Counted from the first letter of the stretch, positions 2,614 to 29,832 are shown. The stretch: DNA of 64,000 nt from an uncultured bacterium (GCA_964588795.1 CAZPQN010000005.1:11109-75108); one strand, 5' to 3'. Notes: generated by a model from the sequence alone, not told the origin. Numbers and translations are program-made.

Positions 2614-2622
2614 AGGCACGAT

Positions 2623-5955: not shown

Positions 5956-5967
5956 GGACACACTCAA

Positions 5968-6306: not shown

Positions 6307-6309
6307 AAT

Positions 6310-6765
6310 ATGAAGCCCAAGACCTTTGAGCTGGATATCAACGGACACAATTACACAGTCACGATTAATGAATTCACCGCCCACGAAGCCGTGCTGACCG
6401 TCAATGACCAAAAATACCGGGTCGGACTAAAAGACCTCGGTTTGGAACAAATAGCCGACATTAAGCCGAAATCCACTCCCGTTGTGGAATCCAAAATCAG
6501 CAGTGCACCGGTACCTTCGACTGCTCTGCACCGTCCCAAAGCCGTGCTGGACTCGGCAGCGATTATCGCACCATTGCCGGGTCTGATCCAGCATGTCAGT
6601 GTGCGCGTCGGTGACCAGGTAAAAGCCGGCCAGCAAGTAATTACCATGGAAGCCATGAAAATGGAAAATGAAATCCAATCCGGGCGTGATGGAGTAGTCA
6701 AAGAAGTTAAAGTCCAGGTCGGCGATTCCGTCAATGAAGGCGATGTTCTGATCGTACTCGAGTGA
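6310..6765 (+). CDS. mmdC: Biotin carboxyl carrier subunit of the decarboxylase
   Basis: The C-terminal biotinyl domain carries the motif EAMKMENEI (biotinylated Lys in AMKM). An Ala/Pro-rich linker precedes it. Confidence 0.9.
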   Translation: MKPKTFELDINGHNYTVTINEFTAHEAVLTVNDQKYRVGLKDLGLEQIADIKPKSTPVVESKISSAPVPSTALHRPKAVLDSAAIIAPLPGLIQHVSVRVGDQVKAGQQVITMEAMKMENEIQSGRDGVVKEVKVQVGDSVNEGDVLIVLE

Positions 6766-6781
6766 GAGGTCAAGTTACGTT

Positions 6782-10309: not shown

Positions 10310-11788
10310 TCAGAGGGCTTTGATTTTTACCACATTGGGACTGACATTTTTAAACTGCGGCATCGCCATCCCGATATCGGCATTGATATAGGTCGGGTCG
10401 CAGACCAAATAATTTTTCCCCTCGAAGCTGACGAAATCGCCACTCACGGCGGAGACGAACCGGACCGCCGTGGCCATGTGTCCCGGGTAATGCAGTCCGA
10501 CGACCTCCAGCCCCAAAAGCTCGCGCACCAGATAGGCAAACATGATGGAGCGATCTTCGCAATCCGAAAAGTCATAAAACACAGTCTCATCTGGGAACAG
10601 AGGCTTTTCCCGCCCGAAATTATCATCATCGGTTTTGTATTCAAATGCGGTCTGGACGAAGCGCAATATCAGATTGACGGCATCCGGCTCACTGCGTCCG
10701 GTGATAATCGGCTTTAAGGCATTCAGAATAGCGTTTTGTACGGCCGGTGCCGTTTGATAGCTAAAATATACGTCCCAGTCGGTCTGCGGATAATATTTGA
10801 AGAATCGGACCGCATCATCACTGTATTTCAGGGCCAGGGAATATTGTTTGCCTCCGTAACTGAAGGTCAGGTTTTTCTGTAAAACCGCATTTTTAAACTG
10901 CGGCGCCGCCGGCACCATCAGCGACAGACTGCGATCCGCGCCCGGATATTCGGTATCATAAGTGTAAAGTGCCCCGGTTAATTCCGGTTCATTCTCAAAT
11001 CGGATCGCGAAATACTGTTGCCCACCCAGGGTGAGATAGGGAACGGAATACACCATGTTCCGGATCGGCAGCAGGAGATAAACGCCTGCGTTGTTATAGC
11101 CGACGCGCGCCTTATAGCCGCTCTTGACCAGCATGAACCAGATGAAAAGCCGGATTTCGTTGGGCTTGTCCCCATAAATCTGTTTGCCGGTCTGGTACAG
11201 CAGTTGCGCACAGCCGTAATCGTTGAGGTTCATGCGTTTGACATAACCATCAATCTGGGTTTTTAAATCGGCAAAATCGGTGCGACTGAGCTCATCCCAG
11301 AAGTTGCTGATAGCCAAATTATTGATGGGTGTGTGCAGAGTGATTTTAGTTTTCTCATCGTACATTAGTTTGATGGGCATGGTAAAATAGTCGAAATTGA
11401 GCTCCGTACCCCGTTTGACATCCGGAGGCGGAGGCGGCGGAGCCGGCGGTTGCGCTTTGGGTTCGGGTTCTGGTTGCGCGATGACCTGGGCGGCACCTCC
11501 GGGCAGAGGCGGAGTCGGTTTAGGCTCCGCGGCTGGCAGTTCTTTCGGTTTGGGTTTGGGATCGCGCAGGCGGCCCTGATAGGCCTGAAAATACTCCCAG
11601 TCCTTTTTCAGAAAATCGGCAAACAGAGAATCGTCGCGCGCGATGTAGTCACGAACGTACTTTTCTGTTTTTTTCATCTGGGCTTCGGTGCGCTCCTTGA
11701 TTTTGCGCATCATTTCTTCGACCGGATCCTGCGCCATGGCGCTCCGGCAGATAAACCAGACGATCAAAAGTACCACAAATCTATGCAT
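10310..11788 (-). CDS. Secreted hypothetical protein with a Pro-rich linker and a C-terminal Cys/His/Asp (transglutaminase-like cysteine-peptidase-like) signature
   Basis: The start is taken at MHRFVVLLIVWFICRSAMAQ, which gives a signal peptide; the track ORF begins 16 codons earlier. There is a PKPKPKELPAAEPKPTPPLP...PPAPPPPPPD linker. The C-terminus shows FSDCEDRS...HYPGHMATAV...VCDPTY spacing. Confidence 0.55.
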   Translation of the reverse strand: MHRFVVLLIVWFICRSAMAQDPVEEMMRKIKERTEAQMKKTEKYVRDYIARDDSLFADFLKKDWEYFQAYQGRLRDPKPKPKELPAAEPKPTPPLPGGAAQVIAQPEPEPKAQPPAPPPPPPDVKRGTELNFDYFTMPIKLMYDEKTKITLHTPINNLAISNFWDELSRTDFADLKTQIDGYVKRMNLNDYGCAQLLYQTGKQIYGDKPNEIRLFIWFMLVKSGYKARVGYNNAGVYLLLPIRNMVYSVPYLTLGGQQYFAIRFENEPELTGALYTYDTEYPGADRSLSLMVPAAPQFKNAVLQKNLTFSYGGKQYSLALKYSDDAVRFFKYYPQTDWDVYFSYQTAPAVQNAILNALKPIITGRSEPDAVNLILRFVQTAFEYKTDDDNFGREKPLFPDETVFYDFSDCEDRSIMFAYLVRELLGLEVVGLHYPGHMATAVRFVSAVSGDFVSFEGKNYLVCDPTYINADIGMAMPQFKNVSPNVVKIKAL

Positions 11789-11836
11789 AAATCCTCCTCG
11801 ATATTTGAGCAACATTCCCAAGTTATTCCAGGCCAT

Positions 11837-12514
11837 TTATAAAAAGATCAGGGCTAATCCGACCGCCACCACCAGACCGGGTAAAAAATTACTGACCCGG
11901 ATGACTTTGATTTCCAGAATATCAATCCCTAAACCGATCAGGAGCAAGCCCCCTACGGCGCTCATTTCCGTGACAACCGGTGTGGTTAATACCGAACCGA
12001 GAGCTCCGGCGAACAGGGTCAGAGCGCCCTGATACAATAACAGCGGGATAGCGGCAAATAAGACTCCCGCGCCCAGCCCCGCCGCCAGCGCCATTGCAGA
12101 AAATCCATCTAACAGGGCTTTGGCCAGGAGCAGGTGCGGTCGCCCGCCCAGGCCCTCTTCAAATGCCCCGAGGACCGTCATCGAACCCATACAGAACAGC
12201 AGGAATGCTGTTACCAGACCATCCGTGAATTTCGCATTCGACGATTTTAACCGGCGTTTCAGGAAATTTCCTAACCGATTGATCTGCTTTTCGATATCCA
12301 GCAATTCACCGATTATCGCCCCGCTGACTGTACTGCCAATCAGAATCAGGAGGTTTTCCGTTCTCATCGCCATCGAAAACCCCAAGTAGAGCGTAAAAAG
12401 TCCAATTGCCTGGAAGGCTATCGTAGTCAGCCGGAGGGGCAGACGAGCATGTAAAAAAAGGCCGAGCATACTCCCGCAGATAACCGTAGCGACGTTAACC
12501 AGGGTACCGATCAT
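11837..12514 (-). CDS. DUF554 family membrane protein (YqgA-like)
   Basis: 225 aa polytopic protein with the N-terminus MIGTLVNVATVICGSMLGLFL characteristic of DUF554. Confidence 0.75.
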   Translation of the reverse strand: MIGTLVNVATVICGSMLGLFLHARLPLRLTTIAFQAIGLFTLYLGFSMAMRTENLLILIGSTVSGAIIGELLDIEKQINRLGNFLKRRLKSSNAKFTDGLVTAFLLFCMGSMTVLGAFEEGLGGRPHLLLAKALLDGFSAMALAAGLGAGVLFAAIPLLLYQGALTLFAGALGSVLTTPVVTEMSAVGGLLLIGLGIDILEIKVIRVSNFLPGLVVAVGLALIFL

Positions 12515-12592: not shown

Positions 12593-12799
12593 TTAGACGG
12601 TAGGTTGATTGTCGGTTTTTTCAGGAATAATGAACCAGCCGACGATGTAGGTCAGCACTAGTGGAAAAAAGCCGGTCACGATCGTTCCAAAAATCAACGC
12701 TAAACGAATCAGCGTCGGATCGAGTCCCAGGAGTTCGCCCAAACCACCACAGATGCCAGCAATTTTCTGGTCGCTTTTCGAACGGTAGATTTTTTTCAT
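12593..12799 (-). CDS. PspC-domain membrane protein
   Basis: 68 aa. KKIYRSKSDQKIAGICGGLGELLGLDPTLIRLALIF matches the PspC domain pattern, and one TM helix follows. Confidence 0.8.
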   Translation of the reverse strand: MKKIYRSKSDQKIAGICGGLGELLGLDPTLIRLALIFGTIVTGFFPLVLTYIVGWFIIPEKTDNQPTV

Positions 12800-12971
12800 A
12801 ATGCACCCTCACGATTGCTGTTGAATTTTAGGCAACATTTGAAAGTCAGGCAAGAGAGAAATCAAAGAAAAACTGAGCGCCCCGATTTCGACGTTTTTCG
12901 GCCAAGAGCTGCATTTTCACTTGAAACCTAAGATTCAAACCCGTATTTTTAAGCTATGCACAGGAGAATTT

Positions 12972-13871
12972 ATGGATAGACGGCAATTTTTAAAGACCTC
13001 GGCTTTGTTGACGGGCGGCGCCTTGCTGCCAAAATCCTCCATTGTCCGGGCCCAGGCGAAAGCGCATAACCTAGTTTTGGTGAAAAATGGTCAACCGGCG
13101 GAAATGGTCAGCAAAGCACTGGATCTGTTGGGTGGAATTCAGCGCTTCGTCGCCACCGGGGAAGTGGTTCTACTCAAACCGAACATAAGTTGGGATCGCG
13201 CACCCGAATATGCCGCCACAACCAATCCCGAATTGGTAGCCGAGATGGTACGGCAGTGCCGCAACGCCGGAGCTAAAAAAGTCATTGTTCTCGATAATCC
13301 ATGCAATGATGCCCGGCGCAGTTATGCTTCCAGCCGGATTCCCGAATATGCAGAAAAAGCCGGAGCGGAAGTCAAATTCATGCGGGAAAATCAATACGTT
13401 GAGACTCCGATCCCGAACGGCACGAAGCTTAAAAGCTGGTTATTTCATCAGGATGCCCTCACCGCGGATAAAATTATCTACCTGCCGATTTTAAAACACC
13501 ATCGCCTGAGCGGGGCGACCATCGGTTTTAAGAATGTCATGGGACTGATTGGTGGTAATCGCGGTCGGATTCATTTCCCGTTTGCGGAAAATATCGTAGA
13601 TCTCAACCGGCGCATTGTACCGGTGCTGACCGTTGTTGACGCTATCCGCGTCCTCAAACGCAATGGTCCGGGTGGCGGAAATCTGCACGATGTTGAACAG
13701 ATGAATACGGTGGTGGCGGGGATCGATCGGGTGCTGGTAGATGCCTGGGGCGCCCGGATTTTCGGACATGACCCGTACACTTACGACTGGCTCAAACTGG
13801 CGCATGCCCAGGGTTTGGGCGAAATTGACACTGAAAAACGACCTCCTTTCATCTTTGATTTCAAGGCATGA
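12972..13871 (+). CDS. DUF362 domain protein with twin-arginine signal
   Basis: ATG at 12972 preceded by AGGAG (12962-12966); the track ORF starts at an upstream TTG. The N-terminus is MDRRQFLKTSALLTGGALLP...VRAQA (consensus RRxFLK). The DUF362-like body contains VLLKPNISW and VDAIRVLKRNGPGGG. Confidence 0.8.
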   Translation: MDRRQFLKTSALLTGGALLPKSSIVRAQAKAHNLVLVKNGQPAEMVSKALDLLGGIQRFVATGEVVLLKPNISWDRAPEYAATTNPELVAEMVRQCRNAGAKKVIVLDNPCNDARRSYASSRIPEYAEKAGAEVKFMRENQYVETPIPNGTKLKSWLFHQDALTADKIIYLPILKHHRLSGATIGFKNVMGLIGGNRGRIHFPFAENIVDLNRRIVPVLTVVDAIRVLKRNGPGGGNLHDVEQMNTVVAGIDRVLVDAWGARIFGHDPYTYDWLKLAHAQGLGEIDTEKRPPFIFDFKA

Positions 13872-15403
13872 AATTTTATAGCCGACCACTTCGCCTCACG
13901 GCTCAGTCAGTATTTCTCGGCCTGTTTCTTTTGACCGTCCTGCAGGCAACTTATCCTTTTCAGCCCTGGTTGCCTCCGGAGCTGTTTCTCTGGCTCGATC
14001 CCCTAGCGAGTTTCTCGACCATGATTGCCGACCGATTTTTTACACCGGTGCTGTTGCTAAGCCTTTTGGTTTTGCTCAGCCCGCTGGTCTTCGGGCGGGC
14101 TTTCTGCGGATGGGTTTGTCCGCTGGGCACGGTGATCGATCTGTGCGACAGGTTCATTGCTCCGCACACGGTGATCAGCTTGCGGCGCTACCGTCCAATC
14201 AAGTCGATCCTGCTGGTAATCTTTATTCTACTGGCCATTCTCGGGATACAATTGGCCTGGTTGCTGGATCCCCTGCCGATTCTCTGGCGGACGATTGGAG
14301 TTCCGGGAATGGCACTATTCTTTCTGATTATTGATACTTTAATGAGCGGACTGGGCGCAGTGGGAATTTTCCCGACGCTGTTTACCAGGCTTCAGGATCA
14401 GCTGGCCGGGTACCTTTTCCCGGTTGCTCGCCCGGCTTTCGGTGGTCTTTTCCTGCCTGTCTTAATTTTTGGGATTATCATCGGTCTGAGCAAGGTGTCC
14501 CGGCGGTTTTGGTGCCGTACGCTCTGCCCGCTGGGAGCTTTGCTGGGGCTGGTCGCCAAATTCAGTCCCTGGCAAAGAACGGTGGATGCAGAGCGGTGTA
14601 CAAGTTGTGCGATCTGCCAGCGTGGGTGCAAGATGGAGGCAATTGAACCGGATATTATGACAACTGAAAAATCCGAATGCATTTTATGCCAGAACTGCGC
14701 CCACGAATGCCCCACTGACGCCATCTGGTTTAGTTTCCAGGCGCCGGGACGAATGCGCTCGCCGGTTGATTTGTCCCGCCGGGCATTTATCGGTTCCGGG
14801 TTAGGGGCTCTGGCGGCGACCGGTTTTTTAGCCATTAATCGCCCTGATCCGCACCGTTCAGACCGGCTGATTCGCCCACCCGGCGCAATCCCGGAAAATG
14901 ATTTCAACGCCCGCTGTTTAAGGTGCGGCGAATGCGTCCGGATTTGTGCCACTTCCGGTAAATGTCTTCAGCATGCCATTGGTTACGGAGGACTCGAAAG
15001 CATTTTGACCCCCTTGGCGCAGTTCCGGCGCGGTTATTGTGAAATGAATTGCAATCTGTGCGGCCAAATTTGTCCGACCAAAGCCATTCGCCCCCTGGCC
15101 TTGCCTGACAAACAAAAAACTAAAATGGGGCTGGCCCTCTTTATCAAGGATCGTTGTATTCCCTACCGGCTTAACCAGAACTGCATGGTCTGCGAGGAAC
15201 ATTGCCCGGTAGCCGATAAAGCCATTCAGACCGAAAAGAGGATCTATCACGATGCGTCAACAGGTTTGGCGCGCGTGGTGGATTATCCCTTTGTCATACC
15301 CGAGTTATGTATCGGGTGCGGCATCTGTGAAAACAAATGCCCGCTCAGCGGCGAAGCCGGGATCATCGTCGTCCGGGAGGGTGAGGAGAGGTTGCCTACA
15401 TGA
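13868..15403 (+). CDS. Membrane polyferredoxin, a NapH-like / NapG-like fusion
   Basis: The N-terminal half is multi-TM with FCGWVCPLG and WCRTLCPLG (CX3CP) plus CTSCAICQRGC and CILCQNCAHECP. An internal SRRAFIGSGLGALAATGFLAI helix follows. The C-terminal half is collinear with NapG: LIRPPGAIPENDFNARCLRCGECVRIC, CEMNCNLCGQICP, CMVCEEHCP and CIGCGICENKCP. Confidence 0.8.
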   Translation: MKFYSRPLRLTAQSVFLGLFLLTVLQATYPFQPWLPPELFLWLDPLASFSTMIADRFFTPVLLLSLLVLLSPLVFGRAFCGWVCPLGTVIDLCDRFIAPHTVISLRRYRPIKSILLVIFILLAILGIQLAWLLDPLPILWRTIGVPGMALFFLIIDTLMSGLGAVGIFPTLFTRLQDQLAGYLFPVARPAFGGLFLPVLIFGIIIGLSKVSRRFWCRTLCPLGALLGLVAKFSPWQRTVDAERCTSCAICQRGCKMEAIEPDIMTTEKSECILCQNCAHECPTDAIWFSFQAPGRMRSPVDLSRRAFIGSGLGALAATGFLAINRPDPHRSDRLIRPPGAIPENDFNARCLRCGECVRICATSGKCLQHAIGYGGLESILTPLAQFRRGYCEMNCNLCGQICPTKAIRPLALPDKQKTKMGLALFIKDRCIPYRLNQNCMVCEEHCPVADKAIQTEKRIYHDASTGLARVVDYPFVIPELCIGCGICENKCPLSGEAGIIVVREGEERLPT

Positions 15404-15861
15404 AAAAACGTTTTGTTCTTTTTCTGATCACCCTCAGCTTCAGCGCCTGCGGTTCAAAATACTTCCTAAAACCCAACGAATATCAGGACTGGAACTGCTC
15501 CAAAAATCAAATGTACTCCAGCTCCAGTGCCTTAAAAAAAGTGCTGGCTAATTCCTATGACCTTTATGCTGGCTACCAGTTACAGCGTCTGCTTATCCAG
15601 CAGGTCACTTCACCCGATTTCAAGGAAGCCCGCATTGAACTTTTCTACACCAACGATACTAACGGCGCCCGCAACTTGTACCGCCGCTACCAGACTTTCA
15701 GCAAGCTCAGCATCGGTGAAGAGGGCAGTCAGAGTCCCGGTTTCGTAGCCTTTTACCGGCAGAATTGCTTTGTCCGGATCACCGCCAAACGGAATCTGAC
15801 GGGCAAAGACATTCACCTGGTTGAACTGGCCAAATTGATTGATGCTAAACTAATGAAATAA
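15400..15861 (+). CDS. Hypothetical lipoprotein
   Basis: MKKRFVLFLITLSFSACGS gives a lipobox L-S-F-S-A-C. ATGA overlap with the upstream gene. I recognise no family. Confidence 0.6.
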   Translation: MKKRFVLFLITLSFSACGSKYFLKPNEYQDWNCSKNQMYSSSSALKKVLANSYDLYAGYQLQRLLIQQVTSPDFKEARIELFYTNDTNGARNLYRRYQTFSKLSIGEEGSQSPGFVAFYRQNCFVRITAKRNLTGKDIHLVELAKLIDAKLMK

Positions 15862-15863
15862 CC

Positions 15864-16994
15864 ATGCGTTACTCCCGCCGTCAGTTTTGTCGGCATTTAG
15901 GCTACAGCCTGGCAGGTTGTTTAGCTGCTCCCGAGCTCCTGCCGCGGTTGTTGGGTGGCACTGTCAATGCGGATGATGAACGTTTCGCATGCGAGGCGCG
16001 CTTTTACACCAAGCTGGACGGTAGAAAGGTGCGCTGTTTGCTCTGCCCGCGGACTTGCCTGATAGCTGAAGGTCAGCGGGGATTCTGTCGCGTTCGAGAA
16101 AATCGCCGGGGGACACTCAACACGCTCGTTTACAGCCGGCTGTGCACCATCAACAATGATCCGATCGAAAAAAAACCGCTCTTCCATTTCCTGCCGGGTA
16201 CCAATGTGCTTTCAGTAGCCACCGCCGGATGTAATCTGCGCTGTAAATTTTGCCAGAACTGGAATATATCCCAGGTGGCGCCGGAATCTATCCGGGCTGA
16301 ATACACGCCTCCCGAACGTCTCGTAGAATATGCACGCCAGATGCACTCTCCCTCCATCGCGTTCACCTACAGTGAGCCGACCATTTTCACAGAGTACGTC
16401 TTGGATACTGCCCGATTAGCCCGTCAGGTAGGGATAAAATGTGTCAGCATTTCCAATGGCTTCATCAATCCCGAACCACTCCGCGATTTATGCACGTTGC
16501 TGAGTGCCATCAAAATTGACTTCAAGGCTTATTCGGACGATTTTTACCAGAATGTCACCACCGGACGCTTACAACCGGTGCTGGACACCATGCAGTACAT
16601 TCACCAGCAAGGCATCTGGCTGGAAATCGTGAATTTATTGATCCCGACGCAGAATGATGACGGCGCACAATTGCAGGCCATGGTGCAATGGATCGGACAA
16701 AATCTGGGTGCCGAAGTGCCGGTGCATTTCACGCGCTTTCATCCGCAGTATTTGATGGAAAACCTGCCACCTACCCCGCAAAAGAGCTTGGAAACAGCCC
16801 AGGCTATTGCCCGGTCGGCCGGATTGCAATATGTCTATATCGGCAACCTGCCCGGTCACCCGGCTGAAAATACCTATTGTGCCCGCTGCGGACAAAAGAT
16901 CATCGAACGGATAGGATATAGCGTCCGGTCAGTTCAAGTCCGCAACGGACGATGTCGTTTCTGCCAATCTCCGATACCCGGAGTATGGAGTTGA
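15864..16994 (+). CDS. AmmeMemoRadiSam system radical SAM enzyme, with a Tat-like N-terminal leader
   Basis: CNLRCKFCQNW (CxxxCxxC). The family-typical N-terminal motif is KVRCLLCPRTCLIAEGQRGFCRVREN and the C-terminal Cys pairs are YCARCGQ...GRCRFCQ. The leader is MRYSRRQFCRHLGYSLAGCLAAP. The Memo/AMMECR1 gene follows immediately. Confidence 0.88.
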   Translation: MRYSRRQFCRHLGYSLAGCLAAPELLPRLLGGTVNADDERFACEARFYTKLDGRKVRCLLCPRTCLIAEGQRGFCRVRENRRGTLNTLVYSRLCTINNDPIEKKPLFHFLPGTNVLSVATAGCNLRCKFCQNWNISQVAPESIRAEYTPPERLVEYARQMHSPSIAFTYSEPTIFTEYVLDTARLARQVGIKCVSISNGFINPEPLRDLCTLLSAIKIDFKAYSDDFYQNVTTGRLQPVLDTMQYIHQQGIWLEIVNLLIPTQNDDGAQLQAMVQWIGQNLGAEVPVHFTRFHPQYLMENLPPTPQKSLETAQAIARSAGLQYVYIGNLPGHPAENTYCARCGQKIIERIGYSVRSVQVRNGRCRFCQSPIPGVWS

Positions 16995-16995
16995 A

Positions 16996-18504
16996 ATGTT
17001 AACACGAGGATTAAAAATTATGCTAATTGCAAACCTGATTTTCAACAATCCCGGTTCGGCCCAGGAACGCCGACCGGCGGCGGCCGGAACATTTTATCCG
17101 GGCGAGGCTCAGGAGTTGAACTCGGAAATCGTGCAATATCTGAAACAAGCCGGAGCCAAAGTTTTGTCGTCCCCGCCAAGGGCGTTGATCGCTCCCCATG
17201 CCGGCTATGTGTACAGCGGTTGGGTAGCCGCTTATGCCTACAAGGAAGTCCGTGATTATCGTTACGACGCCATTATCATCGTCGCTCCGTGTCATGTCGA
17301 ATACTTTCCATTTGCGGCGGTTTACGAGGGTACTGCTTATGTCACCCCCCTGGGTAAAGTTGCAGTTGACACTAAGTTAGCCCGGGAGTGCACGACCCAA
17401 GACGGGTTGGTACGCCTGGCGGGTAACGGGCACACTTTCAAACAATTTGCCCGGGGTGAACACAGTCTGGAAGTGCAGCTCCCGTTCTTGCAGATTGTCC
17501 AGCCGAATACTCCCATCGTCCCGATCGTCGTCGGAACCCAGGATTGGCAAGTACTGGAATCTCTCGGTCGGCAACTGGGAAAAATTGCCCAATCCCGCAA
17601 TGTTCTTCTGGTAGCTTCCAGCGACCTGTCGCATTATCACTCTTATAGTGAATGCCAGAAAATCGACCGCCGTTTAGTTGCCGCGCTGGAGAAGTTCGCC
17701 CCGCACGACTTCTACCGTGGCCTTGTCAATGAGGAATTCGAAGCTTGCGGTGGCGGGCCGATTACTGCGGCTATGATGGCCGCGCAAATCGCCGGCGCCA
17801 ACCAGGTAAAAGTGCTTAAAGTCGCTAATAGCGGTGATGTTCCGATTGGGGAAAAGTCTCAGGTAGTTGGGTATTTAGCGGCTGTCTTTTACCAGGGACA
17901 AAGTCGGGAAAAACACAACGCAACGCTCGGTGAAAAAAAATCCAATCCCGGAACGTTAGACCGCCCGGAACAACTTTTCTTGCTTGACCTGGCTGAAAAG
18001 ACCATCAGCGCCGCTGTGCATAAAAAACCGCTCCCCTCACCCGCCACGATTCCCGAACGCCTGAAGGTTAAGCGCGGTGCGTTCGTGACCATTGAAAAAC
18101 GGCACGACCTGCGGGGGTGCATCGGCTATGTGTTACCGATGAAACCGCTTTTTGAAACCGTCATCGAGGTTGCCAGGCTCGCGGCGCTGGAAGACCCGCG
18201 TTTCGAACCGGTCAGTGTCAGCGAACTCAAGGACCTCAGCGTCGAAATCTCGGTGCTGACGGTCCCGGAAAAAATCAGCGACCCGAATATCATTGAAGTC
18301 GGCAAGCACGGAATTATCATCCGTCGCGGTTTCTATTCGGGACTTTTACTACCGCAGGTGGCTACGGATTACGGCTGGGATCGCGTGACATTTTTAGAGC
18401 ATACCTGTCAGAAAGCAGGTTTGCCGCGCGATGCCTGGCAAGATAAAAGTACCGAAATCTCCATTTTTTCCGCCCAGGTCTTCAGCCGGGAAAGCGTCGA
18501 ATAA
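16996..18504 (+). CDS. Fusion of Memo-like (AmmeMemoRadiSam protein B) and AMMECR1 (protein A) domains
   Basis: N-terminal half: PAAAGTFYPG, IAPHAGYVYSG, HSLEVQLPFLQ and SSDLSHYH (Memo). C-terminal half: RGAFVTIEKRHDLRGCIGY and LLPQVA (AMMECR1). A 27-aa hydrophobic leader precedes the Memo core. Confidence 0.88.
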   Translation: MLTRGLKIMLIANLIFNNPGSAQERRPAAAGTFYPGEAQELNSEIVQYLKQAGAKVLSSPPRALIAPHAGYVYSGWVAAYAYKEVRDYRYDAIIIVAPCHVEYFPFAAVYEGTAYVTPLGKVAVDTKLARECTTQDGLVRLAGNGHTFKQFARGEHSLEVQLPFLQIVQPNTPIVPIVVGTQDWQVLESLGRQLGKIAQSRNVLLVASSDLSHYHSYSECQKIDRRLVAALEKFAPHDFYRGLVNEEFEACGGGPITAAMMAAQIAGANQVKVLKVANSGDVPIGEKSQVVGYLAAVFYQGQSREKHNATLGEKKSNPGTLDRPEQLFLLDLAEKTISAAVHKKPLPSPATIPERLKVKRGAFVTIEKRHDLRGCIGYVLPMKPLFETVIEVARLAALEDPRFEPVSVSELKDLSVEISVLTVPEKISDPNIIEVGKHGIIIRRGFYSGLLLPQVATDYGWDRVTFLEHTCQKAGLPRDAWQDKSTEISIFSAQVFSRESVE

Positions 18505-18523: not shown

Positions 18524-20725
18524 TCACTTTTCCGTGGCAGTCAGGAAAAATAGCAGTGTCCCAACCGTAAGAATCAACAGTCTAACCAGCGGAATCCCCC
18601 AGACCGGGATTAAAAACACCGAAGTAAGGTAAACTCCCGCACAGGCACCGATGATGTCCCAGGCATATAATTTTCCGGCCGTGGGAACGGTGGCTCCCGG
18701 TTTTGACTCCTCGATGCGACGCGCCAGAAATGGTAACGTCACTCCGGCGACTACTCCCGCCGCAAATAGTAAAAAGTACAGCATTCCCGCCGTGGAGCGG
18801 GCCGAAAGTGGAAGATAGCCCGGCAGACATAAAATTATGGACAACAACAGCAGGGTTAAAAAGATATGCCTGACTGTGAGCTTGCGTAACGCCTTAACTT
18901 TAAGTTCCAAGAGCGCCCCACTGCCTGAACCCACCATAAAACACAGCATCAGCATTACCATGCGTAAATACAGACCGCCCACGTAGATCTGGAACAGAAT
19001 CAGGGACGTGGTTTCAATTGCCATCACGATAAAACCTACCATCAACATGTAGAACGGCCACACCGCCCGGTGATTCTTCTGGTGTCTTAACCACCACAGA
19101 ACCAAAATTACAGCGATAAAGATAGTCAACAGGAAGCAGATACTGGGAATCTGCCATAGCTTCTGATAGATATTTTTAATCCATCCGCCGGTTTGCTGGT
19201 CCCATAAAATCGTGTCGTAATAAAATCCGATCGGAGCCAAAAAAGTATTAATCTCCAAAGCTGATTCACGGGCAATCTGTTCGGTCAGAAAAGCGACTTT
19301 AGCAACTGACACCCGGTCACGCAGAAAATGATCTGAAACGTACCGGTTGCTGATCCCAGTGTGACGCAGGCGATCGGTGAAAAATTTATAATCATTATGC
19401 AGAACCCGATCCGCGGCCAATAGATGCACGGTCAGACCGGGAATCCAGGTCGTTTGGGCGAAGACTCGCTGGACGCTGTTCTGGATAATCTTGAAAAAAG
19501 TGACGGCTTCAGCGACTAAATACTCTTCACCACCCGGAAAACTCAAAGCCATGACACCATCGCTGACCAAACGCCTGCGGACCAGATTAAAAAACTCGAC
19601 CGAATAGTACCGATTCCACTGCGCATTGACCGGCAGAGGGATATTAAGCAGCACCACATCGAAGGTGTCAGGATTATCAAGAAGATAATAGTAGGGATCG
19701 GCGATATGCTTTTCGACTAAGCTGTCAGTGGGCTGGCTGAACCGGTCAAGGGTCTCCTGTAAAACACGATCGGCGTGCAGAACGGAAATTTGCTGCACTG
19801 ATCGATACTTGTAGATTTCCCGATATAGTTCTGCATAACCCGGTCCGATAATCAGTACCTTACGCGGCTGAGAGTGATTCAGCAGTGCAAAGTGAACAAG
19901 CTCCTCGGCGCGGGCGACATCACCAGCCACCCATAAGGGTTGACTATCCCCGTAGAGAGCCTGATTATCGGTATATTCAACCGTCGTCAGTGACAGATAA
20001 GGTGACTCCCGGAATTCTACGACCCTAAACGGCCGCCATTTCAAGGCATTGAGTCGCTTAGGAAAGCGGTACATTAATCCCGCAATGAGAACGAGCATCA
20101 GATACAAAACAATTTTTATCGGTCGGGAACTGCCCCAGAACCAGACGCTACCTACGGCCATCGCCCAGACTGCCAGGCCCAAAATAAACAGGGTAGTCAA
20201 ACCACTCCACAGTAAGAGTGCGAACAACAGGCTACCGATCGCCGCTCCAAACATTTCAGCGATGTAGGTGAAGTGAATTGCCGATAAGCCGGTTTGGGTT
20301 TTCGACCAGGCAACCATCAGGGGAAAAAACAGGCCATTCAATAGACAGGGCCAAATGAAAACCATCAAGGTCCATCGAAAAATTGTCGCATTACCGACCA
20401 ATGCACTGGTACCGATGCCACTAATCTGGCGCACCATGAAGAGAAGCCCAGCAAAACCAAGTAAGGCCAACAGATAGACCGGGATTACCACGCGTAGTTG
20501 CTTGGCAGGATTTGCCGCAGTAAATAGTCGCCCGCCGAGCAGACTACCGATTCCAGTCCATAACAGCCAGTGACCAAGCGCAATGCACACGGTTAGCTCA
20601 TTACCATGAAAAGACTGGACTGCAATTCTTAAAAATGCCAATTGCCCAACCATGGATAGCAGACCAATTCCCGCGACGCACAGCCCACTTTGGAGTCTTG
20701 CTCTGCTTGTGGTCAGGCTACTCAT
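18524..20725 (-). CDS. Fused polytopic membrane / spermidine-synthase-like (aminopropyltransferase fold) protein
   Basis: 733 aa. About 7 N-terminal TM helices, a central soluble domain with VLIIGPGYAELYREI and a class I methyltransferase/SpeE-like layout, then about 6 C-terminal TM helices. Confidence 0.7.
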   Translation of the reverse strand: MSSLTTSRARLQSGLCVAGIGLLSMVGQLAFLRIAVQSFHGNELTVCIALGHWLLWTGIGSLLGGRLFTAANPAKQLRVVIPVYLLALLGFAGLLFMVRQISGIGTSALVGNATIFRWTLMVFIWPCLLNGLFFPLMVAWSKTQTGLSAIHFTYIAEMFGAAIGSLLFALLLWSGLTTLFILGLAVWAMAVGSVWFWGSSRPIKIVLYLMLVLIAGLMYRFPKRLNALKWRPFRVVEFRESPYLSLTTVEYTDNQALYGDSQPLWVAGDVARAEELVHFALLNHSQPRKVLIIGPGYAELYREIYKYRSVQQISVLHADRVLQETLDRFSQPTDSLVEKHIADPYYYLLDNPDTFDVVLLNIPLPVNAQWNRYYSVEFFNLVRRRLVSDGVMALSFPGGEEYLVAEAVTFFKIIQNSVQRVFAQTTWIPGLTVHLLAADRVLHNDYKFFTDRLRHTGISNRYVSDHFLRDRVSVAKVAFLTEQIARESALEINTFLAPIGFYYDTILWDQQTGGWIKNIYQKLWQIPSICFLLTIFIAVILVLWWLRHQKNHRAVWPFYMLMVGFIVMAIETTSLILFQIYVGGLYLRMVMLMLCFMVGSGSGALLELKVKALRKLTVRHIFLTLLLLSIILCLPGYLPLSARSTAGMLYFLLFAAGVVAGVTLPFLARRIEESKPGATVPTAGKLYAWDIIGACAGVYLTSVFLIPVWGIPLVRLLILTVGTLLFFLTATEK

Positions 20726-20737
20726 TTGCAGATTAAG

Positions 20738-21568
20738 TTACTGGGCTAATTGGACGCGCCCCGGCGCCCAGGCCACCCGAAACCCGAGAAAACTCAGGCG
20801 GGCGACAGGCATATAGCGCATACGATGTGAAGTATGCAGGGTTTCCGTTCCGTGATACCAGCTGCCTCCGCGAATGACCTTGAACATACTCGCCGCAGGA
20901 CCGGTGGGCTCGACCATCGTGGAATTTTCGTAGTAATCGCTCTTGTAGTAATCCTGGCACCATTCATAAACATTACCCGACATATCAAACAAACCGAGTA
21001 AGTTCGGCGGGAAGCTGGCTACGGGGGCAGCCTTTTTCCACTTATCTTTCTTTTCTACTCCGGAGTAGTTCGCCATGGAATGGTCCATTTCCTCACCGGA
21101 GGGATACTTCATTACCAGACCTCCCGAGCGGGCGGCATATTCCCACTGGGCTTCGGTGGGCAGACTGCCACCCACAAACTGGCAGAATTCGTTGGCTTCA
21201 TACCAGGTCACAAATACTACCGGATAGGAATCGTCGGCATAGTCTTCCTGTTCCGGCATCGCTTTGCCCGTCAGTCGACAATAATTTTTATACTGACCGA
21301 TCGTCACTTCTGTCAATCCCAAATAGAAATCAGAAAGGGTTACGCTATGGACCGGTGTCTCATCATCCTTCCCTTCTCCAAAGTGCTCACCCATGTCAAA
21401 CGTGCCGCCTTTCACAAACAGCGCGGGTATTCCGATGCGGCTGATTTTAACCACGTTGAGCCTGGTATCCTCACTTTTACGTACGGGTTCCGGAGTGCGG
21501 GCCAGCAAAGCCGTCAGCAGAACGACACCCAGGAATCCGACCGCTTTTTTAATTTCTCCACCGCTCAT
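20738..21568 (-). CDS. FGE-sulfatase-fold (SUMF1/EgtB/PvdO family) protein, membrane anchored
   Basis: N-terminal TM anchor, then VTWYEANEFCQ, TEAQWEYAARSG, GNVYEWCQDYY and RGGSWYH. The Cys pair of true formylglycine-generating enzymes is absent after RGGSW. Confidence 0.75.
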   Translation of the reverse strand: MSGGEIKKAVGFLGVVLLTALLARTPEPVRKSEDTRLNVVKISRIGIPALFVKGGTFDMGEHFGEGKDDETPVHSVTLSDFYLGLTEVTIGQYKNYCRLTGKAMPEQEDYADDSYPVVFVTWYEANEFCQFVGGSLPTEAQWEYAARSGGLVMKYPSGEEMDHSMANYSGVEKKDKWKKAAPVASFPPNLLGLFDMSGNVYEWCQDYYKSDYYENSTMVEPTGPAASMFKVIRGGSWYHGTETLHTSHRMRYMPVARLSFLGFRVAWAPGRVQLAQ

Positions 21569-21748: not shown

Positions 21749-24277
21749 ATGCGCACAACTCCTACCCGGCCGGGTATCCGCGCCCTGCCGCTGGTCATTG
21801 CCGGAGCGATCCTGATAGTTTTAATAGGGTGCAGAGGTGATATGTCAAGCCTGATCGTTCATTATCATCGCTACGATAATCAATATGCCGGCTGGAGTTT
21901 GTGGACCTGGCTCGATCAGGTCTCGCTCGATGCCCCGGCTTTTAAGCAAGATGGGTTCGGGCTGGTTTTCAAAATCGAGCTAAAAGAATATCCGCCCAAA
22001 GGCAACATCGGGCTGTTACCCAAACGGGGGAACTGGCTTGAAAAAGACGATCCCAACCGTTTCTGGAGTCGCAATCTGCCCGGTGAAATCTGGATCTTAC
22101 AGGGTGACGAAAAACTGTACCTAACCCAGCCAGATACACAACCTATCATCCGGCAGGCATTTCTTGATAGTCCCACGGAAGTGCTATTAGTCTTTTCGCA
22201 TCCGGTCGTTAAGCAGATTGTTCCCCGCCTCAATCCCATCATTACCCTGTCAAATACAGTAAAAATTCAACCGATAAAAGTGCAACTCATGCCTGCCAAT
22301 GCTGATTCTTCGAATCTTATCCGGCTCATTACTTCCACGCCGCTCGACCCGGCCCATCTGCCCGCCGAGGTGCAAGCGGCGGATTTCGAACCGTGTCCCA
22401 TTCAATTGCGACGGATATTAGATTCACCAAAGTATGTCAGCAACGTTCCACTGGGCGCTTTTTACACTCCAAAAGCAACGCGTTTTGCCGTTTTTGCCCC
22501 GGGCGCAACAGCCGTTCACCTGCAGCTGTACACTCGACCCAAGGGGGGACGTCCCCGTTCTGTACCCCTTCAGCAAATGAAAACCGGCATCTGGTCAGCG
22601 ACGGTTGCAGGTGACCTCAAAGGTCAGTATTATGTCTATACCGTCGCCGGTCCGGATCCGGCTTACGTACCCGACCAGGAAGTCATTGATCCTTATGCCC
22701 GTTGTGTCACAACCCACGACGGACGTGCCCTAATCTTCCACGATGAAACACCGGTGGCCGATTCGCCGGTCTTTCCCATTCAGGATGCTATCATTTACGA
22801 AATCCACGTCCGCGATTTCACCATCAGTGAAAACTCCGGCATGCGTTACAAAGGCAAATACCTTGGTTTCGCCGAGGAAGGTACGCGTCTGCCCGGCACC
22901 GATTTGTCCACGGGTCTCGATCATCTAACCGAGCTGGGAATTAACACCGTTCAGCTGTTGCCAGTCCAGGATTTTGAGCACGATAATCAGACTAACAGCT
23001 ACTTCTGGGGTTACATGACAGTCAATTTCAATTCCCCGGATGGTTGGTACACTACCAATGAAGACGACGCCAGCCGTATCGCAGAATTCAAGCAGATGAT
23101 TTCCAAACTGCACCAGCGCGGAATCAAGGTCATTCTCGATGTCGTTTACAATCATACCGCGGAGACCAATCCACATGTCCGGTACAATTTCAACGGGCTG
23201 GTGCCCAATTTTTACTATCGCCAAAAACCCGATGGAAGCTACTGGAACGGATCCGGGTGCGGGAACGAGGTGCGGTCCGAACAACCGATGGTGCGACGTT
23301 TCATCCTGGAATCGCTCAAGTACTGGGTCGAAACCTTCAAAGTAGATGGTTTTCGCTTTGACCTGATGGGATTGATTGACCTCGCCACCCTGCAGACGAT
23401 TGTCCGTGAACTACGGGCGATCAAACCGGACATCTTCCTGTACGGTGAACCTTGGACCGCCGGCGAAACCCCGATTCGTCCCACCGTCAAAGGGCACCAG
23501 CGCGGAGAAGGCTTTGCGGTTTTCAACGACAATTTCCGTGACGCGCTGAAGGGTCCGTGGTACAACACCGAGCCGGGTTACGTCCAGACGGGCAAAAACG
23601 TCGAACAGGTCAAGAAGGGCATTATGGGCAGTATCACCGATTTCGCCGACTCCCCAACCGAAGTAATCAACTACGTTTCCTGTCATGACGGACGCACGCT
23701 CTGGGACCTACTGGTAGCTTCGACCAGCGGTATGGGATTGCATACCGATACCGAATTAAAGGCGATGGATAAATTAGCCGCGTTTATTATCTTTACCTCC
23801 CAGGGCATTCCATTTATGCAGGGTGGCGAAGAATTCCTAAGAACCAAATTCGGGTCGCATAACAGCTACAACCAGCCGGATAAAATCAACAAAATCCGCT
23901 GGGACTACAAACAGGAAAACTACGATATTTTTCAGTACTACAAAGGTCTGATTGCTCTGCGCCAGACCCACCCCATGTTCCGCCTCACCGATGCACTTGA
24001 GATCAAACGCAATCTCACCTTTTTAGAACAATTGGGCTACGCGGTACCCGAACACTGTATCGCTTATCGTTTGCAACGGGGCACCTGTCAGGATAAATGG
24101 CGTGAGGTGCTGATCCTGATCAATCCCAATCGTGAATCCGTGACCTTTAAATTCCCGAAAAATAAATGGATTCTGGCGGTTGACCATACTCAGGTAAGAA
24201 GTGACATTATTGCGCCGGTTAATGCCAGTTTTCTGTCAGTTAAACCGATTTCTGCGGTGCTGATGTATCGTTTGTAA
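21749..24277 (+). CDS. pulA: Type I pullulanase (GH13) lipoprotein
   Basis: Lipobox LIGC. GH13 regions DVVYNHT, GFRFDLMG, YGEPW and YVSCHD. The N-terminus has carbohydrate-binding-like modules (YHRYDNQYAGWSLWTW). Confidence 0.88.
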   Translation: MRTTPTRPGIRALPLVIAGAILIVLIGCRGDMSSLIVHYHRYDNQYAGWSLWTWLDQVSLDAPAFKQDGFGLVFKIELKEYPPKGNIGLLPKRGNWLEKDDPNRFWSRNLPGEIWILQGDEKLYLTQPDTQPIIRQAFLDSPTEVLLVFSHPVVKQIVPRLNPIITLSNTVKIQPIKVQLMPANADSSNLIRLITSTPLDPAHLPAEVQAADFEPCPIQLRRILDSPKYVSNVPLGAFYTPKATRFAVFAPGATAVHLQLYTRPKGGRPRSVPLQQMKTGIWSATVAGDLKGQYYVYTVAGPDPAYVPDQEVIDPYARCVTTHDGRALIFHDETPVADSPVFPIQDAIIYEIHVRDFTISENSGMRYKGKYLGFAEEGTRLPGTDLSTGLDHLTELGINTVQLLPVQDFEHDNQTNSYFWGYMTVNFNSPDGWYTTNEDDASRIAEFKQMISKLHQRGIKVILDVVYNHTAETNPHVRYNFNGLVPNFYYRQKPDGSYWNGSGCGNEVRSEQPMVRRFILESLKYWVETFKVDGFRFDLMGLIDLATLQTIVRELRAIKPDIFLYGEPWTAGETPIRPTVKGHQRGEGFAVFNDNFRDALKGPWYNTEPGYVQTGKNVEQVKKGIMGSITDFADSPTEVINYVSCHDGRTLWDLLVASTSGMGLHTDTELKAMDKLAAFIIFTSQGIPFMQGGEEFLRTKFGSHNSYNQPDKINKIRWDYKQENYDIFQYYKGLIALRQTHPMFRLTDALEIKRNLTFLEQLGYAVPEHCIAYRLQRGTCQDKWREVLILINPNRESVTFKFPKNKWILAVDHTQVRSDIIAPVNASFLSVKPISAVLMYRL

Positions 24278-24305
24278 TCTGGTGCATATCATTGCTGAGG
24301 TACGC

Positions 24306-28384: not shown

Positions 28385-28396
28385 TCCGGAGAAAAA

Positions 28397-29764: not shown

Positions 29765-29832
29765 TTTTATCTGCCGATTCACTCATGCATTACCCGCATT
29801 TACAATAAATAATTTGACCGCAGGATCTCCGA

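Follow-up and report, generated by a model that had tools for sequence, protein, structure and literature searches.

Operon layout and relation to described systems

The AmmeMemoRadiSam system comprises three protein families, and in the window (the whole 64,000-nucleotide stretch of DNA analyzed here) all three models score over their curated cutoffs in adjacent genes: TIGR04337 for the radical SAM enzyme (rSAM; 394 bits, cutoff 220), and TIGR04336 (255 bits, cutoff 26) and TIGR04335 (185 bits, cutoff 99) for a Memo-AMMECR1 fusion. The family's CX3CX2C core and its invariant extra Cys motifs are present in the rSAM of the window. In the window, as in most close relatives from bacteria, a Tat leader precedes the rSAM, and Memo and AMMECR1 form one chain that opens with a Sec or lipoprotein signal, whereas archaeal and some bacterial rSAMs in our sample have no leader. 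Partners beyond the trio are a DUF362 protein, a polyferredoxin (PFD), a small lipoprotein, and a Spermine_synth membrane protein (Table 1).

PFD has the domain types of NapGH, the quinol dehydrogenase found in periplasmic nitrate reductase systems; unlike NapGH, it carries NapH and NapG domains in one fused chain and has DUF362 and/or an rSAM as partner. Profile searches matched Fer4_5 (NapH-type) twice, NapG NF007012 (E = 3.7e-27), and NapH TIGR02163 (2.4e-17), both of the latter far below their equivalog cutoffs (95 vs 269 bits and 63 vs 213 bits). The annotated flanking genes (about 900-34900) gave no match to nitrate reductase or cytochrome families. In NapGH, electrons pass between the membrane and a partner in the periplasm, and the same presumably holds for PFD (see the discussion in PMC5449189); by analogy, PFD probably works like NapGH without being a member.

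The architecture of PFD is common to the MLMS-1 protein Q1NSB0 [Tooke et al. 2017, PMC5449189]. In both proteins, a NapH-like portion with several TM helices bears CX3CP motifs and cytoplasmic clusters; next come a twin-arginine motif, immediately ahead of a weakly hydrophobic final helix, positive charges after this helix, and then four periplasmic [4Fe-4S] motifs. In the window, these are two CX3CP and two cytoplasmic Cys4 motifs in the NapH-like part, an internal SRRAFI motif before the helix (residues 306-324), and four Cys4 motifs in the NapG-like part; the Cys columns are invariant in the homolog alignment, and the internal RR motif is kept in 84/120 homologs. The original prediction knew of no earlier description of the linkage set out below. 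No paper on an exported AmmeMemoRadiSam form was found, although the most relevant one, Burroughs et al. 2019 (JBC), was not covered; the NapH-NapG fusion and its internal Tat motif, in contrast, are already published [PMC5449189] as a dual Sec/Tat-inserted polyferredoxin, whose topology and Sec/Tat dependence were demonstrated by experiment on a homolog. The sections consulted name neither a partner nor a function for it. Here, its near-universal partner is a Tat-signal DUF362 protein (75/80 PFD loci), and in certain lineages it is joined to AmmeMemoRadiSam.

An ORF check placed the five plus-strand genes at 12972-18504, as originally predicted, and the overlaps and spacers agree as well: ATGA overlaps at 13868 (DUF362/PFD, GCATGAAA) and 15400 (PFD/lipoprotein, ACATGAAA), a 2-nt spacer at 15861/15864 (lipoprotein/rSAM, TAAccATG), and a 1-nt spacer at 16994/16996 (rSAM/Memo-AMMECR1, TGAaATG). 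The family calls were upheld by HMM searches (PF04015, NapH/NapG-like, and the three AmmeMemoRadiSam models), and the leader motifs of all five products were found as described: RRQFLK, the internal SRRAFI followed by a helix, the lipobox FSAC, SRRQFCR, and MLTRGLKIMLIANLIF. Minus-strand genes flank the block at either end. Given the AGGAG upstream of the DUF362 start and a 100% identical 299-aa database protein, a longer TTG ORF from 12921 is unneeded. Because consensus matches in the region upstream were weak (10 found vs 5.5 +/- 2.2 expected), no promoter was assigned. Tight gene coupling by itself is commonplace in operons; what stands above chance is the cross-phylum conservation of the gene set.

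Table 1. Features of the operon and adjoining genes; positions are counted from the first nucleotide of the window.
Feature	Position	Strand	Length	Details
Intergenic leader and probable promoter region	12800..12971	+		AGGAG RBS 7 nt before ATG at 12972
Tat-signal DUF362 protein	12972..13871	+	299 aa	Leader MDRRQFLK...VRAQA; PF04015
Polytopic polyferredoxin (PFD)	13868..15403	+	511 aa	NapH-like membrane part and NapG-like C-terminal part
Small lipoprotein	15400..15861	+	153 aa	Lipobox FSAC; Cys17 invariant in alignment
AmmeMemoRadiSam radical SAM enzyme (rSAM)	15864..16994	+	376 aa	TIGR04337
Memo-AMMECR1 fusion	16996..18504	+	502 aa	N-terminal Sec-type hydrophobic leader MLTRGLKIMLIANLIFNNPGSAQ
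Convergent polytopic Spermine_synth-domain membrane protein	18524..20725	-	733 aa	PF01564 3.1e-14
FGE-sulfatase-family protein	20738..21568	-		PF03781 2.9e-51; immediately upstream of Spermine_synth gene

The leader-bearing radical SAM enzyme and its neighbors

The rSAM begins with a 44-residue Tat-type leader (MRYSRRQFCRHLGYSLAGCLAAPELLPRLLGGTVNA), and the TIGR04337 match starts at residue 45. The leader fits the S/T-R-R-x-F-L-K consensus, has a weakly hydrophobic h-region, and ends in an A-x-A-like VNA; it contains neither ATG nor GTG in frame, and just the TTG codons 29 and 30. An RR motif occurs in 111/120 best rSAM homologs, Tat-like leaders in 80/80 close relatives, and the RR motif plus hydrophobic segment recur across phyla. 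A hydrophobic leader or lipobox is found on 62/63 Memo proteins adjoining Tat-type rSAMs, while in two of the seven leaderless-rSAM loci with an adjacent Memo gene (L044 and L069), Memo also has no leader. The DUF362 leader scores just over cutoff for the Tat signal models PF10518 and TIGR01409, with a Tat motif (RR/KR) in 114/120 homologs. These motifs and their conservation support the predicted envelope targeting of all five products, and the export signals are conserved family traits, not ORF-calling artefacts. Two loci appear to count against export: in L036 and L050, a leaderless rSAM adjoins a Memo-AMMECR1 with a signal peptide.

Such leaderless enzymes would suit an alternative that we consider very improbable, in which the leaders of rSAM and Memo-AMMECR1 are cytoplasmic-face membrane tethers, or are recognized by chaperones, and the chemistry is cytoplasmic, close to the Spermine_synth membrane protein and the clusters that PFD has on that side. 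SAM and low-potential reductants are found in the cytoplasm, and the weak h-region of the rSAM leader and the ambiguous topology of the Spermine_synth protein are also in line with tethering. However, this alternative has to accommodate the consensus fit, VNA end, and cross-phylum recurrence of the rSAM leader, as well as the classical Sec signal peptides on partner Memo-AMMECR1 proteins; many of these peptides include a lipobox Cys, and they imply translocation. Moreover, for the families of DUF362 and the NapG-like domain, Tat export has been demonstrated or is supported by models [PMC5449189].

The nearest solved relatives of the rSAM core, and its sole PDB matches by sequence, are chains of pyruvate formate-lyase (PFL)-activating enzyme, a glycyl-radical activase (E = 2e-7). 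Activase families also make up most of the secondary NCBIfam matches, all far under cutoff. The rSAM could then be a PFL-activating-enzyme-like protein maturase or activase, with DUF362, the lipoprotein, or Memo-AMMECR1 as its target. It might act on DUF362 ahead of Tat export or in its course, perhaps with both proteins in one hitch-hiking complex, and in a single turnover with pre-bound SAM rather than catalytically in the periplasm, so that a periplasmic SAM pool would not be required; 13 loci in which DUF362 and a Tat-type rSAM are paired without Memo-AMMECR1 are consistent with such a role. Still, we regard it as improbable. No glycyl-radical enzyme was found near rSAM, nor a recognizable precursor peptide in the operon, and unlike PFL-activating enzyme, the rSAM has, in addition to its CNLRCKFC core, two further invariant Cys4 motifs (N- and C-terminal) and a Tat leader. 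PFD and the leader would both be superfluous for a cytoplasmic maturase, and DUF362 and rSAM each have their own complete Tat signal, whereas hitch-hiking normally needs just one, as stated in the abstract of a paper on Tat. The earlier suggestion that DUF362 or the lipoprotein is a substrate found no supporting evidence.

The small lipoprotein is probably a distant DUF6599 relative in a narrow, lineage-restricted family: it matches PF20244 at E = 0.12, its L086 ortholog at 1.6e-9 (38 bits, cutoff 27), and just 12 representative clusters of the family turned up among 1.84 billion proteins. Its gene follows PFD in L002, L004, L110, and L166, and precedes rSAM in L084/L085, where PFD is absent.

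All five genes of the original prediction are real, but the list left out the convergent Spermine_synth membrane protein, which is the most widely conserved extra neighbor of leader-bearing rSAMs. Its gene lies near 36/59 leader-bearing vs 3/21 leaderless rSAMs (p = 2.7e-4), and downstream in 10/16 Marinimicrobia and 28/42 Acidobacteriota loci. The protein has ~7 TM helices, a ~300-aa Spermine_synth-like domain, and ~7 more TM helices of ambiguous sidedness from sequence; all NCBIfam aminopropyltransferase models are under cutoff, and the GGGDGG and DSxDP motifs are present in degenerate rather than canonical form. The FGE-sulfatase gene may be co-transcribed with it, and the pair is kept in L086. 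The 80 loci L001-L080 yielded no homolog of the FGE-sulfatase, and its membership of the system is doubtful.

DUF362, PFD, and their linkage to AmmeMemoRadiSam

The DUF362 protein matches PF04015 at 168.8 bits (2e-49), and no PDB match was found by sequence. Its AF2 model (pLDDT 92.7) has a predicted LarA-like two-domain fold: the top 19 Foldseek matches in the PDB are all LarA-family racemases (probability 1.00, TM 0.40-0.54). LarA proteins are nickel-pincer-nucleotide racemases/epimerases, and their DUF2088 belongs to the same Pfam clan as DUF362 [PMC11770544]. Sequence identity is 10-16%, DUF362 is ~120 residues shorter, and LarA is cytoplasmic, whereas DUF362 here has a Tat export signal and a polyferredoxin partner. 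The modeled fold suggests that DUF362 is probably a cofactor-carrying periplasmic protein, and this confident model would fit a cofactor-loaded Tat substrate.

DUF362 appears to be the hub between PFD and Tat-type rSAMs. Besides its adjacency to PFD, it adjoins or precedes Tat-type rSAMs in 42/61 loci, and in a broader sample lies next to rSAM in 11/48 Tat-type loci vs 0/32 others (p = 0.0025).

Neighborhood surveys bore out the recurrence of the predicted gene set within certain lineages and not across the PFD family. PFD and DUF362 are upstream of rSAM in 12/16 evaluable Marinimicrobia species loci, and metagenomic Marinimicrobia contigs have the same five genes with 54-66% rSAM identity and differing flanks. 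PFD is also upstream of rSAM in 9/42 Acidobacteriota/Binatia and allied loci, with a different order: PFD, lipoprotein, DUF362, rSAM, Memo-AMMECR1, Spermine_synth protein (minus strand), and DUF362. PFD is found only in loci with Memo-AMMECR1 (18/41 vs 0/13, p = 0.0024). The linkage is thus real but confined to certain lineages. Among PFD homologs at large, rSAM, Memo, AMMECR1, and Spermine_synth genes lie within 9 kb in 0/80 loci; the general partner of the PFD family is DUF362, not rSAM. DUF362 and PFD are absent beside rSAM in 4/16 Marinimicrobia species and in contigs L084/L085, L174, and L175, which means that the wire is either dispensable or encoded elsewhere in those genomes.

These absences, together with the pairing of DUF362 and PFD in many phyla, are what would be expected if two independent envelope modules simply shared one transcript. 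DUF362-PFD would then be a periplasmic oxidoreductase in its own right, in which DUF362 is the catalytic subunit and PFD provides a quinone- or cytoplasm-linked electron route; it would neither give electrons to rSAM nor interact with it, and adjacency would reflect common regulation or envelope localization in a few lineages. We hold this possible but rather unlikely, since at least two phyla have the gene set, in differing internal orders and with ATGA-type coupling among the junctions, PFD is limited to loci with Memo-AMMECR1, DUF362 alone lies directly upstream of Tat-type rSAMs in 30 further loci, the small lipoprotein is tied to both modules, and other lineages have analogous redox modules.

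Proposed electron supply to a putatively exported rSAM

The analogous modules are found beside rSAMs with Sec-type leaders, where DsbD_2 or a DsbD_2-FMN_bind-Fer4_5 fusion occurs in 9/11 vs 0/69 loci (p = 2e-10); in Omnitrophota, Chlamydiae, and Auribacterota relatives, the fusion takes the place of PFD. NosR-type membrane flavo-Fe-S proteins (FMN_bind + Fer4_5) would be an analogous replacement and are absent from the window. By analogy, the DsbD_2-type modules lend independent support to an electron conduit. The original prediction that PFD feeds rSAM is favored by these modules and by the lineage linkage, and is weakened by the general partnership of PFD with DUF362; with rSAM near 0/80 PFD loci, it would apply to certain lineages and is not a family property.

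The explanation we favor, at about an even chance, is a composite envelope operon of two modules that exist separately elsewhere, in which the wire reduces an exported rSAM. In the first module, PFD would be inserted by Sec and Tat together, with its NapH-like part and cytoplasmic clusters inside and the four-cluster NapG-like domain outside, where the latter would form a periplasmic redox couple with Tat-exported DUF362. The second would be an extracytoplasmic AmmeMemoRadiSam, its rSAM exported folded with Fe-S clusters by Tat and the Memo-AMMECR1 fusion and small lipoprotein by Sec, usually accompanied by the convergent Spermine_synth-domain membrane protein. The modules would be co-transcribed in Marinimicrobia and part of Acidobacteriota most likely because an exported rSAM is cut off from cytoplasmic flavodoxin or ferredoxin. 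Instead, DUF362 would serve as hub or adaptor for the transmembrane Fe-S wire, which would reduce the [4Fe-4S] cluster of rSAM, and the system would act on an envelope substrate. Several points count against this explanation: we know of no extracytoplasmic SAM source, no SAM exporter was identified in this analysis, and reduction of a radical SAM cluster by a quinol-fed PFD, as in NapGH, would be strongly uphill. Altogether, the occurrence of the trio with export signals, a membrane Fe-S wire, and DUF362 in one operon suggests that radical SAM chemistry may take place outside the cytoplasm in this Marinimicrobia operon.

Operon anatomy and protein families

The five plus-strand open reading frames of the original prediction are all present, flanked by minus-strand genes at either end. 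Reading the DNA gave the same junctions: ATGA overlaps at the first two, a 2-nt spacer (TAAccATG) at the third and a 1-nt spacer (TGAaATG) at the fourth, the last lying between the genes for the AmmeMemoRadiSam radical SAM enzyme (rSAM) and the Memo-AMMECR1 protein. The start codon of the DUF362 gene is the ATG at 12972, with an AGGAG 7 nt before it, and the gene product is 100% identical to a 299-aa database protein. The closest named homologs belong to Candidatus Marinimicrobia (= Neomarinimicrobiota/Fidelibacterota), and the methylmalonyl-CoA pathway, glycoside hydrolases and T9SS sorting tail elsewhere in the window are consistent with this placement. A promoter/terminator scan yielded 10 promoter-like sites (5.5 ± 2.2 expected) and 8 terminator-like sites (8.3 expected). 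In the flanks, the methylmalonyl-CoA mutase cluster indicates propionate-type fermentation, and the PspC-like/DUF554 order is the same in L086, a homologous locus on a metagenomic contig.

Features of the operon and its flanks
Feature	Position	Strand	Description
Methylmalonyl-CoA mutase, MeaB, carboxyltransferase, Na+-translocating decarboxylase beta subunit	916-7951	+	
508-aa protein	10310-11836	-	Hydrophobic N-terminus, long Pro/Ala-rich stretch, no Pfam match
DUF554 membrane protein	11837-12514	-	Divergent, just upstream of operon
PspC-domain-like small ORF	12593-12799	-	From sequence reading and L086 annotation; divergent from operon
DUF362 protein	12972-13871	+	
Polyferredoxin (PFD)	13868-15403	+	
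Small lipoprotein	15400-15861	+	
rSAM	15864-16994	+	
Memo-AMMECR1	16996-18504	+	
Spermine_synth protein	18524-20725	-	733 aa, ~14 TM helices, central PF01564 domain (53 bits)
FGE-sulfatase-family gene	20738-21568	-	13 nt upstream of Spermine_synth gene, same strand
Pullulanase, amylase, GH38, protein with T9SS sorting tail	21749-32619		Downstream

Profile searches with TIGR04335, TIGR04336, TIGR04337 and PF04015 all returned matches, with the trio models above cutoff. The rSAM scored 394.3 bits with TIGR04337 (curated cutoff 220), the model beginning at residue 45, and the cysteines of its CX3CX2C motif (C123, C127, C130) are invariant in the alignment. Memo-AMMECR1 is a 502-aa fusion that scored 254.7 bits with TIGR04336 (cutoff 26) and 184.7 bits with TIGR04335 (cutoff 99). 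A glycyl-radical activase role was considered for the rSAM; no glycyl-radical enzyme is encoded nearby.

The polyferredoxin includes two Fer4_5 motifs (PF12801, 2 stretches), a NapH-like region and a C-terminal NapG-like region (NF007012, 3.7e-27, residues 304-502) with four invariant Cys sets. In the alignment, the cysteines at 80/84 and 216/220 (CX3CP) and those of the cytoplasmic [4Fe-4S] motifs at 244-254 and 271-281 are invariant, as are R304 and R305 of the internal SRRAFI, a strict S/T-RR being kept in 84 of 120 homologs. The following helix (306-324) has the lowest KD value of the six (1.49) and is followed by NRPDPHRSDRLIR. The predicted NapH-NapG fusion architecture is thus confirmed, but it is not new: fusions of this kind, with a twin-arginine motif inside the chain, are the PFD family of Tooke et al. 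2017 (PMC5449189). That paper notes the NapH/NapG kinship, describes a last helix of weak hydrophobicity with positive charges after it, and reports that an MLMS-1 homolog needs Sec and Tat together for membrane insertion, based on E. coli reporters. The last-helix, positive-charge and twin-arginine features described there are common to the window protein. Because every defining feature tested was found, the window system is an AmmeMemoRadiSam member and its polyferredoxin is a PFD family member, for which Sec/Tat-dependent insertion would follow by analogy with the MLMS-1 homolog, the one member in which it has been demonstrated. The window PFD would work like NapGH, yet it is not a member, because its NapG and NapH equivalog scores fall far below cutoff (95.1 bits vs 269 and 60.4 vs 234, respectively) and no nap genes are found among the window neighbors examined.

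The small protein matches no family at the default threshold; its lipobox Cys is invariant in the alignment. Its family is narrow, 1.84 billion proteins yielding only 12 representative clusters, and DUF6599 is a distant relative, with the L086 ortholog above the Pfam cutoff and the window protein below it. In Acidobacteriota, and in two loci with PFD only, the lipoprotein gene comes after PFD; in loci that lack PFD it comes before the rSAM. These positions tie it to both modules. The two PFD-only loci (L110:10605-11504 and L166:10554-11048) have lipoprotein homologs directly downstream of PFD and no rSAM, and this suggests that the polyferredoxin is the primary partner of the lipoprotein.

N-terminal leaders and the DUF362 fold

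The rSAM leader (SRRQFCR...VNA) combines an S/T-R-R-x-F-L-K-type motif, an h-region of moderate hydrophobicity and an A-x-A-type end. Among the 120 best rSAM database homologs, 111 have an RR-x-hydrophobic motif close to the N-terminus with a hydrophobic stretch after it, and all 80 of the closest species-level relatives have a Tat-like leader. Across 80 broader loci (rSAM identity 42-55%), there are ~35 RR, 13 KR/RK and 11 Sec-like leaders, and ~20 rSAMs, from archaea and some bacteria, have none. Of 63 Memo-AMMECR1 proteins next to Tat-type rSAMs, 62 carry a hydrophobic leader, and many of these include a lipobox Cys; the two Memo proteins without a leader (loci L044 and L069) adjoin leaderless rSAMs. 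We judge the leaders to be real because they are conserved across homologs; mis-called ORFs were rejected on this protein-level conservation and on the lack of an internal ATG or GTG in the rSAM leader. The prediction that every product looks envelope-targeted therefore stands for all five products at the level of sequence signals.

No Tat HMM match was reported for the rSAM itself, and leaders that serve as tethers at the cytoplasmic face of the membrane are one further reading, which we regard as very improbable. Leader conservation, together with the Sec/lipobox leaders of the partner protein, suggests that both the rSAM and DUF362 would be translocated by Tat.

Some loci depart from the common pattern. 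In one Nitrospiraceae locus (L036:3663-4637) and one Pirellulales locus (L050:4405-5382), the rSAM is leaderless and closely preceded by an in-frame stop, yet the Memo-AMMECR1 beside it keeps a signal peptide; both loci also encode the Spermine_synth membrane protein. At locus L053 (5200-5440), an apparently leaderless rSAM gene has a frameshift, either an assembly error or a pseudogene, that splits a Sec-type hydrophobic leader and a conserved 'REAKYY' segment from the catalytic domain.

The DUF362 protein matches PF04015 (2e-49), PF10518 (23.1 bits vs 22.7) and TIGR01409 (18.7 vs 16.7), and its Tat motif is kept in 114 of 120 homologs. A PDB sequence search gave nothing meaningful; a fold search was informative. 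The AlphaFold2 model (42 sequences; pLDDT 92.7, pTM 0.87), in which disorder is confined to the signal peptide, matched LarA-family nickel-pincer-nucleotide racemases/epimerases, including malate racemase, and the uncharacterized structural-genomics protein 4nar (19 best PDB matches, probability 1.00, TM 0.40-0.54). This agrees with the placement of DUF362 and LarA in one Pfam clan (PMC11770544), and the modeled protein has a two-domain LarA fold. Invariant Lys, His and Asp residues, including K175, H177, K187 and H201, are present in the alignment. The putative cofactor-binding fold would explain a Tat requirement of DUF362.

Gene neighborhoods of PFD and rSAM

To survey PFD neighborhoods we used an alignment-based scan in place of a single-protein scan, which gave only distant Thalassospira NapH-like genes. 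Among 80 PFD-centered loci from many phyla (32-44% identity), DUF362 is immediately adjacent to PFD on the same strand in 75, and none of the 80 has a gene for an rSAM, Memo, AMMECR1 or Spermine_synth protein within 9 kb. The DUF362-PFD pair therefore forms a widespread two-gene module that is autonomous. A second survey covered 80 species-level loci of close rSAM relatives; of its 16 Marinimicrobia loci, 13 have the lipoprotein gene upstream as well.

Genes beside the rSAM in close relatives (loci with gene/loci in group)
Group	PFD upstream	DUF362 upstream	Memo-AMMECR1 downstream	Spermine_synth protein downstream
Marinimicrobia	12/16	12/16	16/16	10/16
Acidobacteriota, Binatia and others	9/42	27/42 (directly adjacent)	28/42	28/42
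Calditrichota	0/3	3/3	1/3	1/3

In this survey PFD is confined to loci with Memo-AMMECR1 (18/41 vs 0/13 without, p = 0.0024). This speaks against the alternative that two independent modules only share a transcript, and the autonomy of the DUF362-PFD pair speaks for it; we consider this alternative unlikely. The Acidobacteriota order (PFD, lipoprotein, DUF362, rSAM, Memo-AMMECR1, Spermine_synth protein on the minus strand, second DUF362) is unlike that of the window, and thus the association either came together or was kept under selection in at least two arrangements. In a third survey, of metagenomic contigs with rSAM identity of 54-66%, the same five genes occur with different flanks at L081/L082, L086 and L173, and L084/L085, L174 and L175 keep just the rSAM and Memo-AMMECR1, in some cases together with the lipoprotein. 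The predicted linkage is real and recurs in Marinimicrobia and Acidobacteriota, but it is lineage-limited and facultative, and PFD often occurs without an rSAM.

Separately, in at least 13 Acidobacteriota/Calditrichota loci a DUF362 gene with a Tat signal immediately precedes a Tat-type TIGR04337-like rSAM, and Memo/AMMECR1 genes are absent within 9 kb; such DUF362-rSAM loci include L201-L205, L207, L209-L211, L214, L216, L217, L222, L234 and L247. DUF362 and the rSAM may be a functional pair in their own right.

The predicted partner list overlooked the convergent Spermine_synth gene. This protein is found near 36 of 59 leader-bearing but only 3 of 21 leaderless rSAMs (p = 2.7e-4), and one of those three is the frameshifted gene of L053 with its Sec-type leader. 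It has GPGYAE and NIPLP in place of the canonical aminopropyltransferase motifs GGGDGG and DSxDP, and all NCBIfam equivalogs score far below cutoff (NF037959, 27.6 vs 40). Given these degenerate motifs and scores, we do not class it as a spermidine synthase/aminopropyltransferase. A 'periplasmic' assignment of its soluble domain was also withdrawn, as hydropathy and positive-inside signals are contradictory. The neighboring FGE-sulfatase-family gene is most similar among NCBIfam models to GldK/PorK, below cutoff. The pair with the Spermine_synth gene is kept in L086, and no FGE-sulfatase homolog was found in the 80 broader loci; its membership in the system is doubtful.

Possible electron supply and periplasmic chemistry

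The Sec-type-leader rSAMs of Omnitrophota, Chlamydiae and Auribacterota adjoin DsbD_2 proteins or DsbD_2-FMN_bind-Fer4_5 (NosR-like) fusions. Such neighbors accompany 9 of 11 Sec-type-leader rSAMs vs 0 of 69 others (p = 2e-10). The presence of different membrane redox modules beside exported rSAMs in different lineages is the best independent argument that these enzymes would need electrons from across the membrane. Loci with Sec-type leaders, as signal peptides or anchors, are L019, L021-L024, L027, L028, L030, L039, L042, L043 and L053. We know of no earlier case in which an enzyme carrying three Cys-cluster motifs is exported by Sec.

The analysis shows the operon anatomy, protein families, leader conservation, co-occurrence and DUF362 fold; export, the electron path, the role of DUF362 and the substrate are inferred. 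We give an even chance to a model in which the operon unites a periplasm-facing redox module (DUF362 and PFD) with an exported AmmeMemoRadiSam system, and PFD supplies the rSAM electron. A Tat-exported rSAM would be out of reach of cytoplasmic flavodoxin/ferredoxin, and the PFD wire would deliver the electron for SAM cleavage. DUF362 is the component that the two kinds of locus share, and Memo-AMMECR1 and the lipoprotein would act alongside the rSAM on an envelope substrate. More tentatively, and with somewhat less than an even prospect of being right, the operon could carry out periplasmic radical SAM chemistry on an envelope molecule, with the rSAM reduced via PFD and the LarA-fold DUF362 and acting with Memo-AMMECR1; SAM would be pre-bound at export or come via the Spermine_synth-domain protein.

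The model has weaknesses: we know of no SAM source outside the cytoplasm, electron transfer to the rSAM cluster would be uphill if the donor is quinol, and many related loci lack PFD. Quite improbable, in our view, is the alternative that the rSAM matures or activates one of the co-encoded proteins, perhaps in a single turnover with SAM already bound.

We know of no biochemical function for the AMMECR1/Memo/radical-SAM trio. Conservation of AMMECR1 and Memo extends from archaea to humans, and both are linked to human disease. Our searches found no paper on AmmeMemoRadiSam function or on a Tat-exported radical SAM enzyme, and earlier mention of exported forms is possible. The searchable literature likewise yielded none on the exported trio, the DUF362-PFD pairing, or the association of DUF362, PFD and the Spermine_synth protein with Tat-type rSAMs.

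Altogether, a large bacterial branch of the system appears to be built for export, to recruit membrane electron conduits and to have a fixed set of partners (DUF362, the Spermine_synth-type membrane protein and PFD), and these three results together narrow the substrate search to the cell envelope. Because DUF362 and PFD are paired almost universally, both of these orphan families gain a function that can be tested; one of the two has so far been studied solely as a Sec/Tat membrane-insertion model. If the reading with periplasmic chemistry is true, no periplasmic radical SAM system would precede this one, and it would be the first functional foothold for the Memo, AMMECR1, DUF362 and orphan PFD families. 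It would also challenge the usual view that radical SAM chemistry is confined to sites that make SAM and low-potential reductants.
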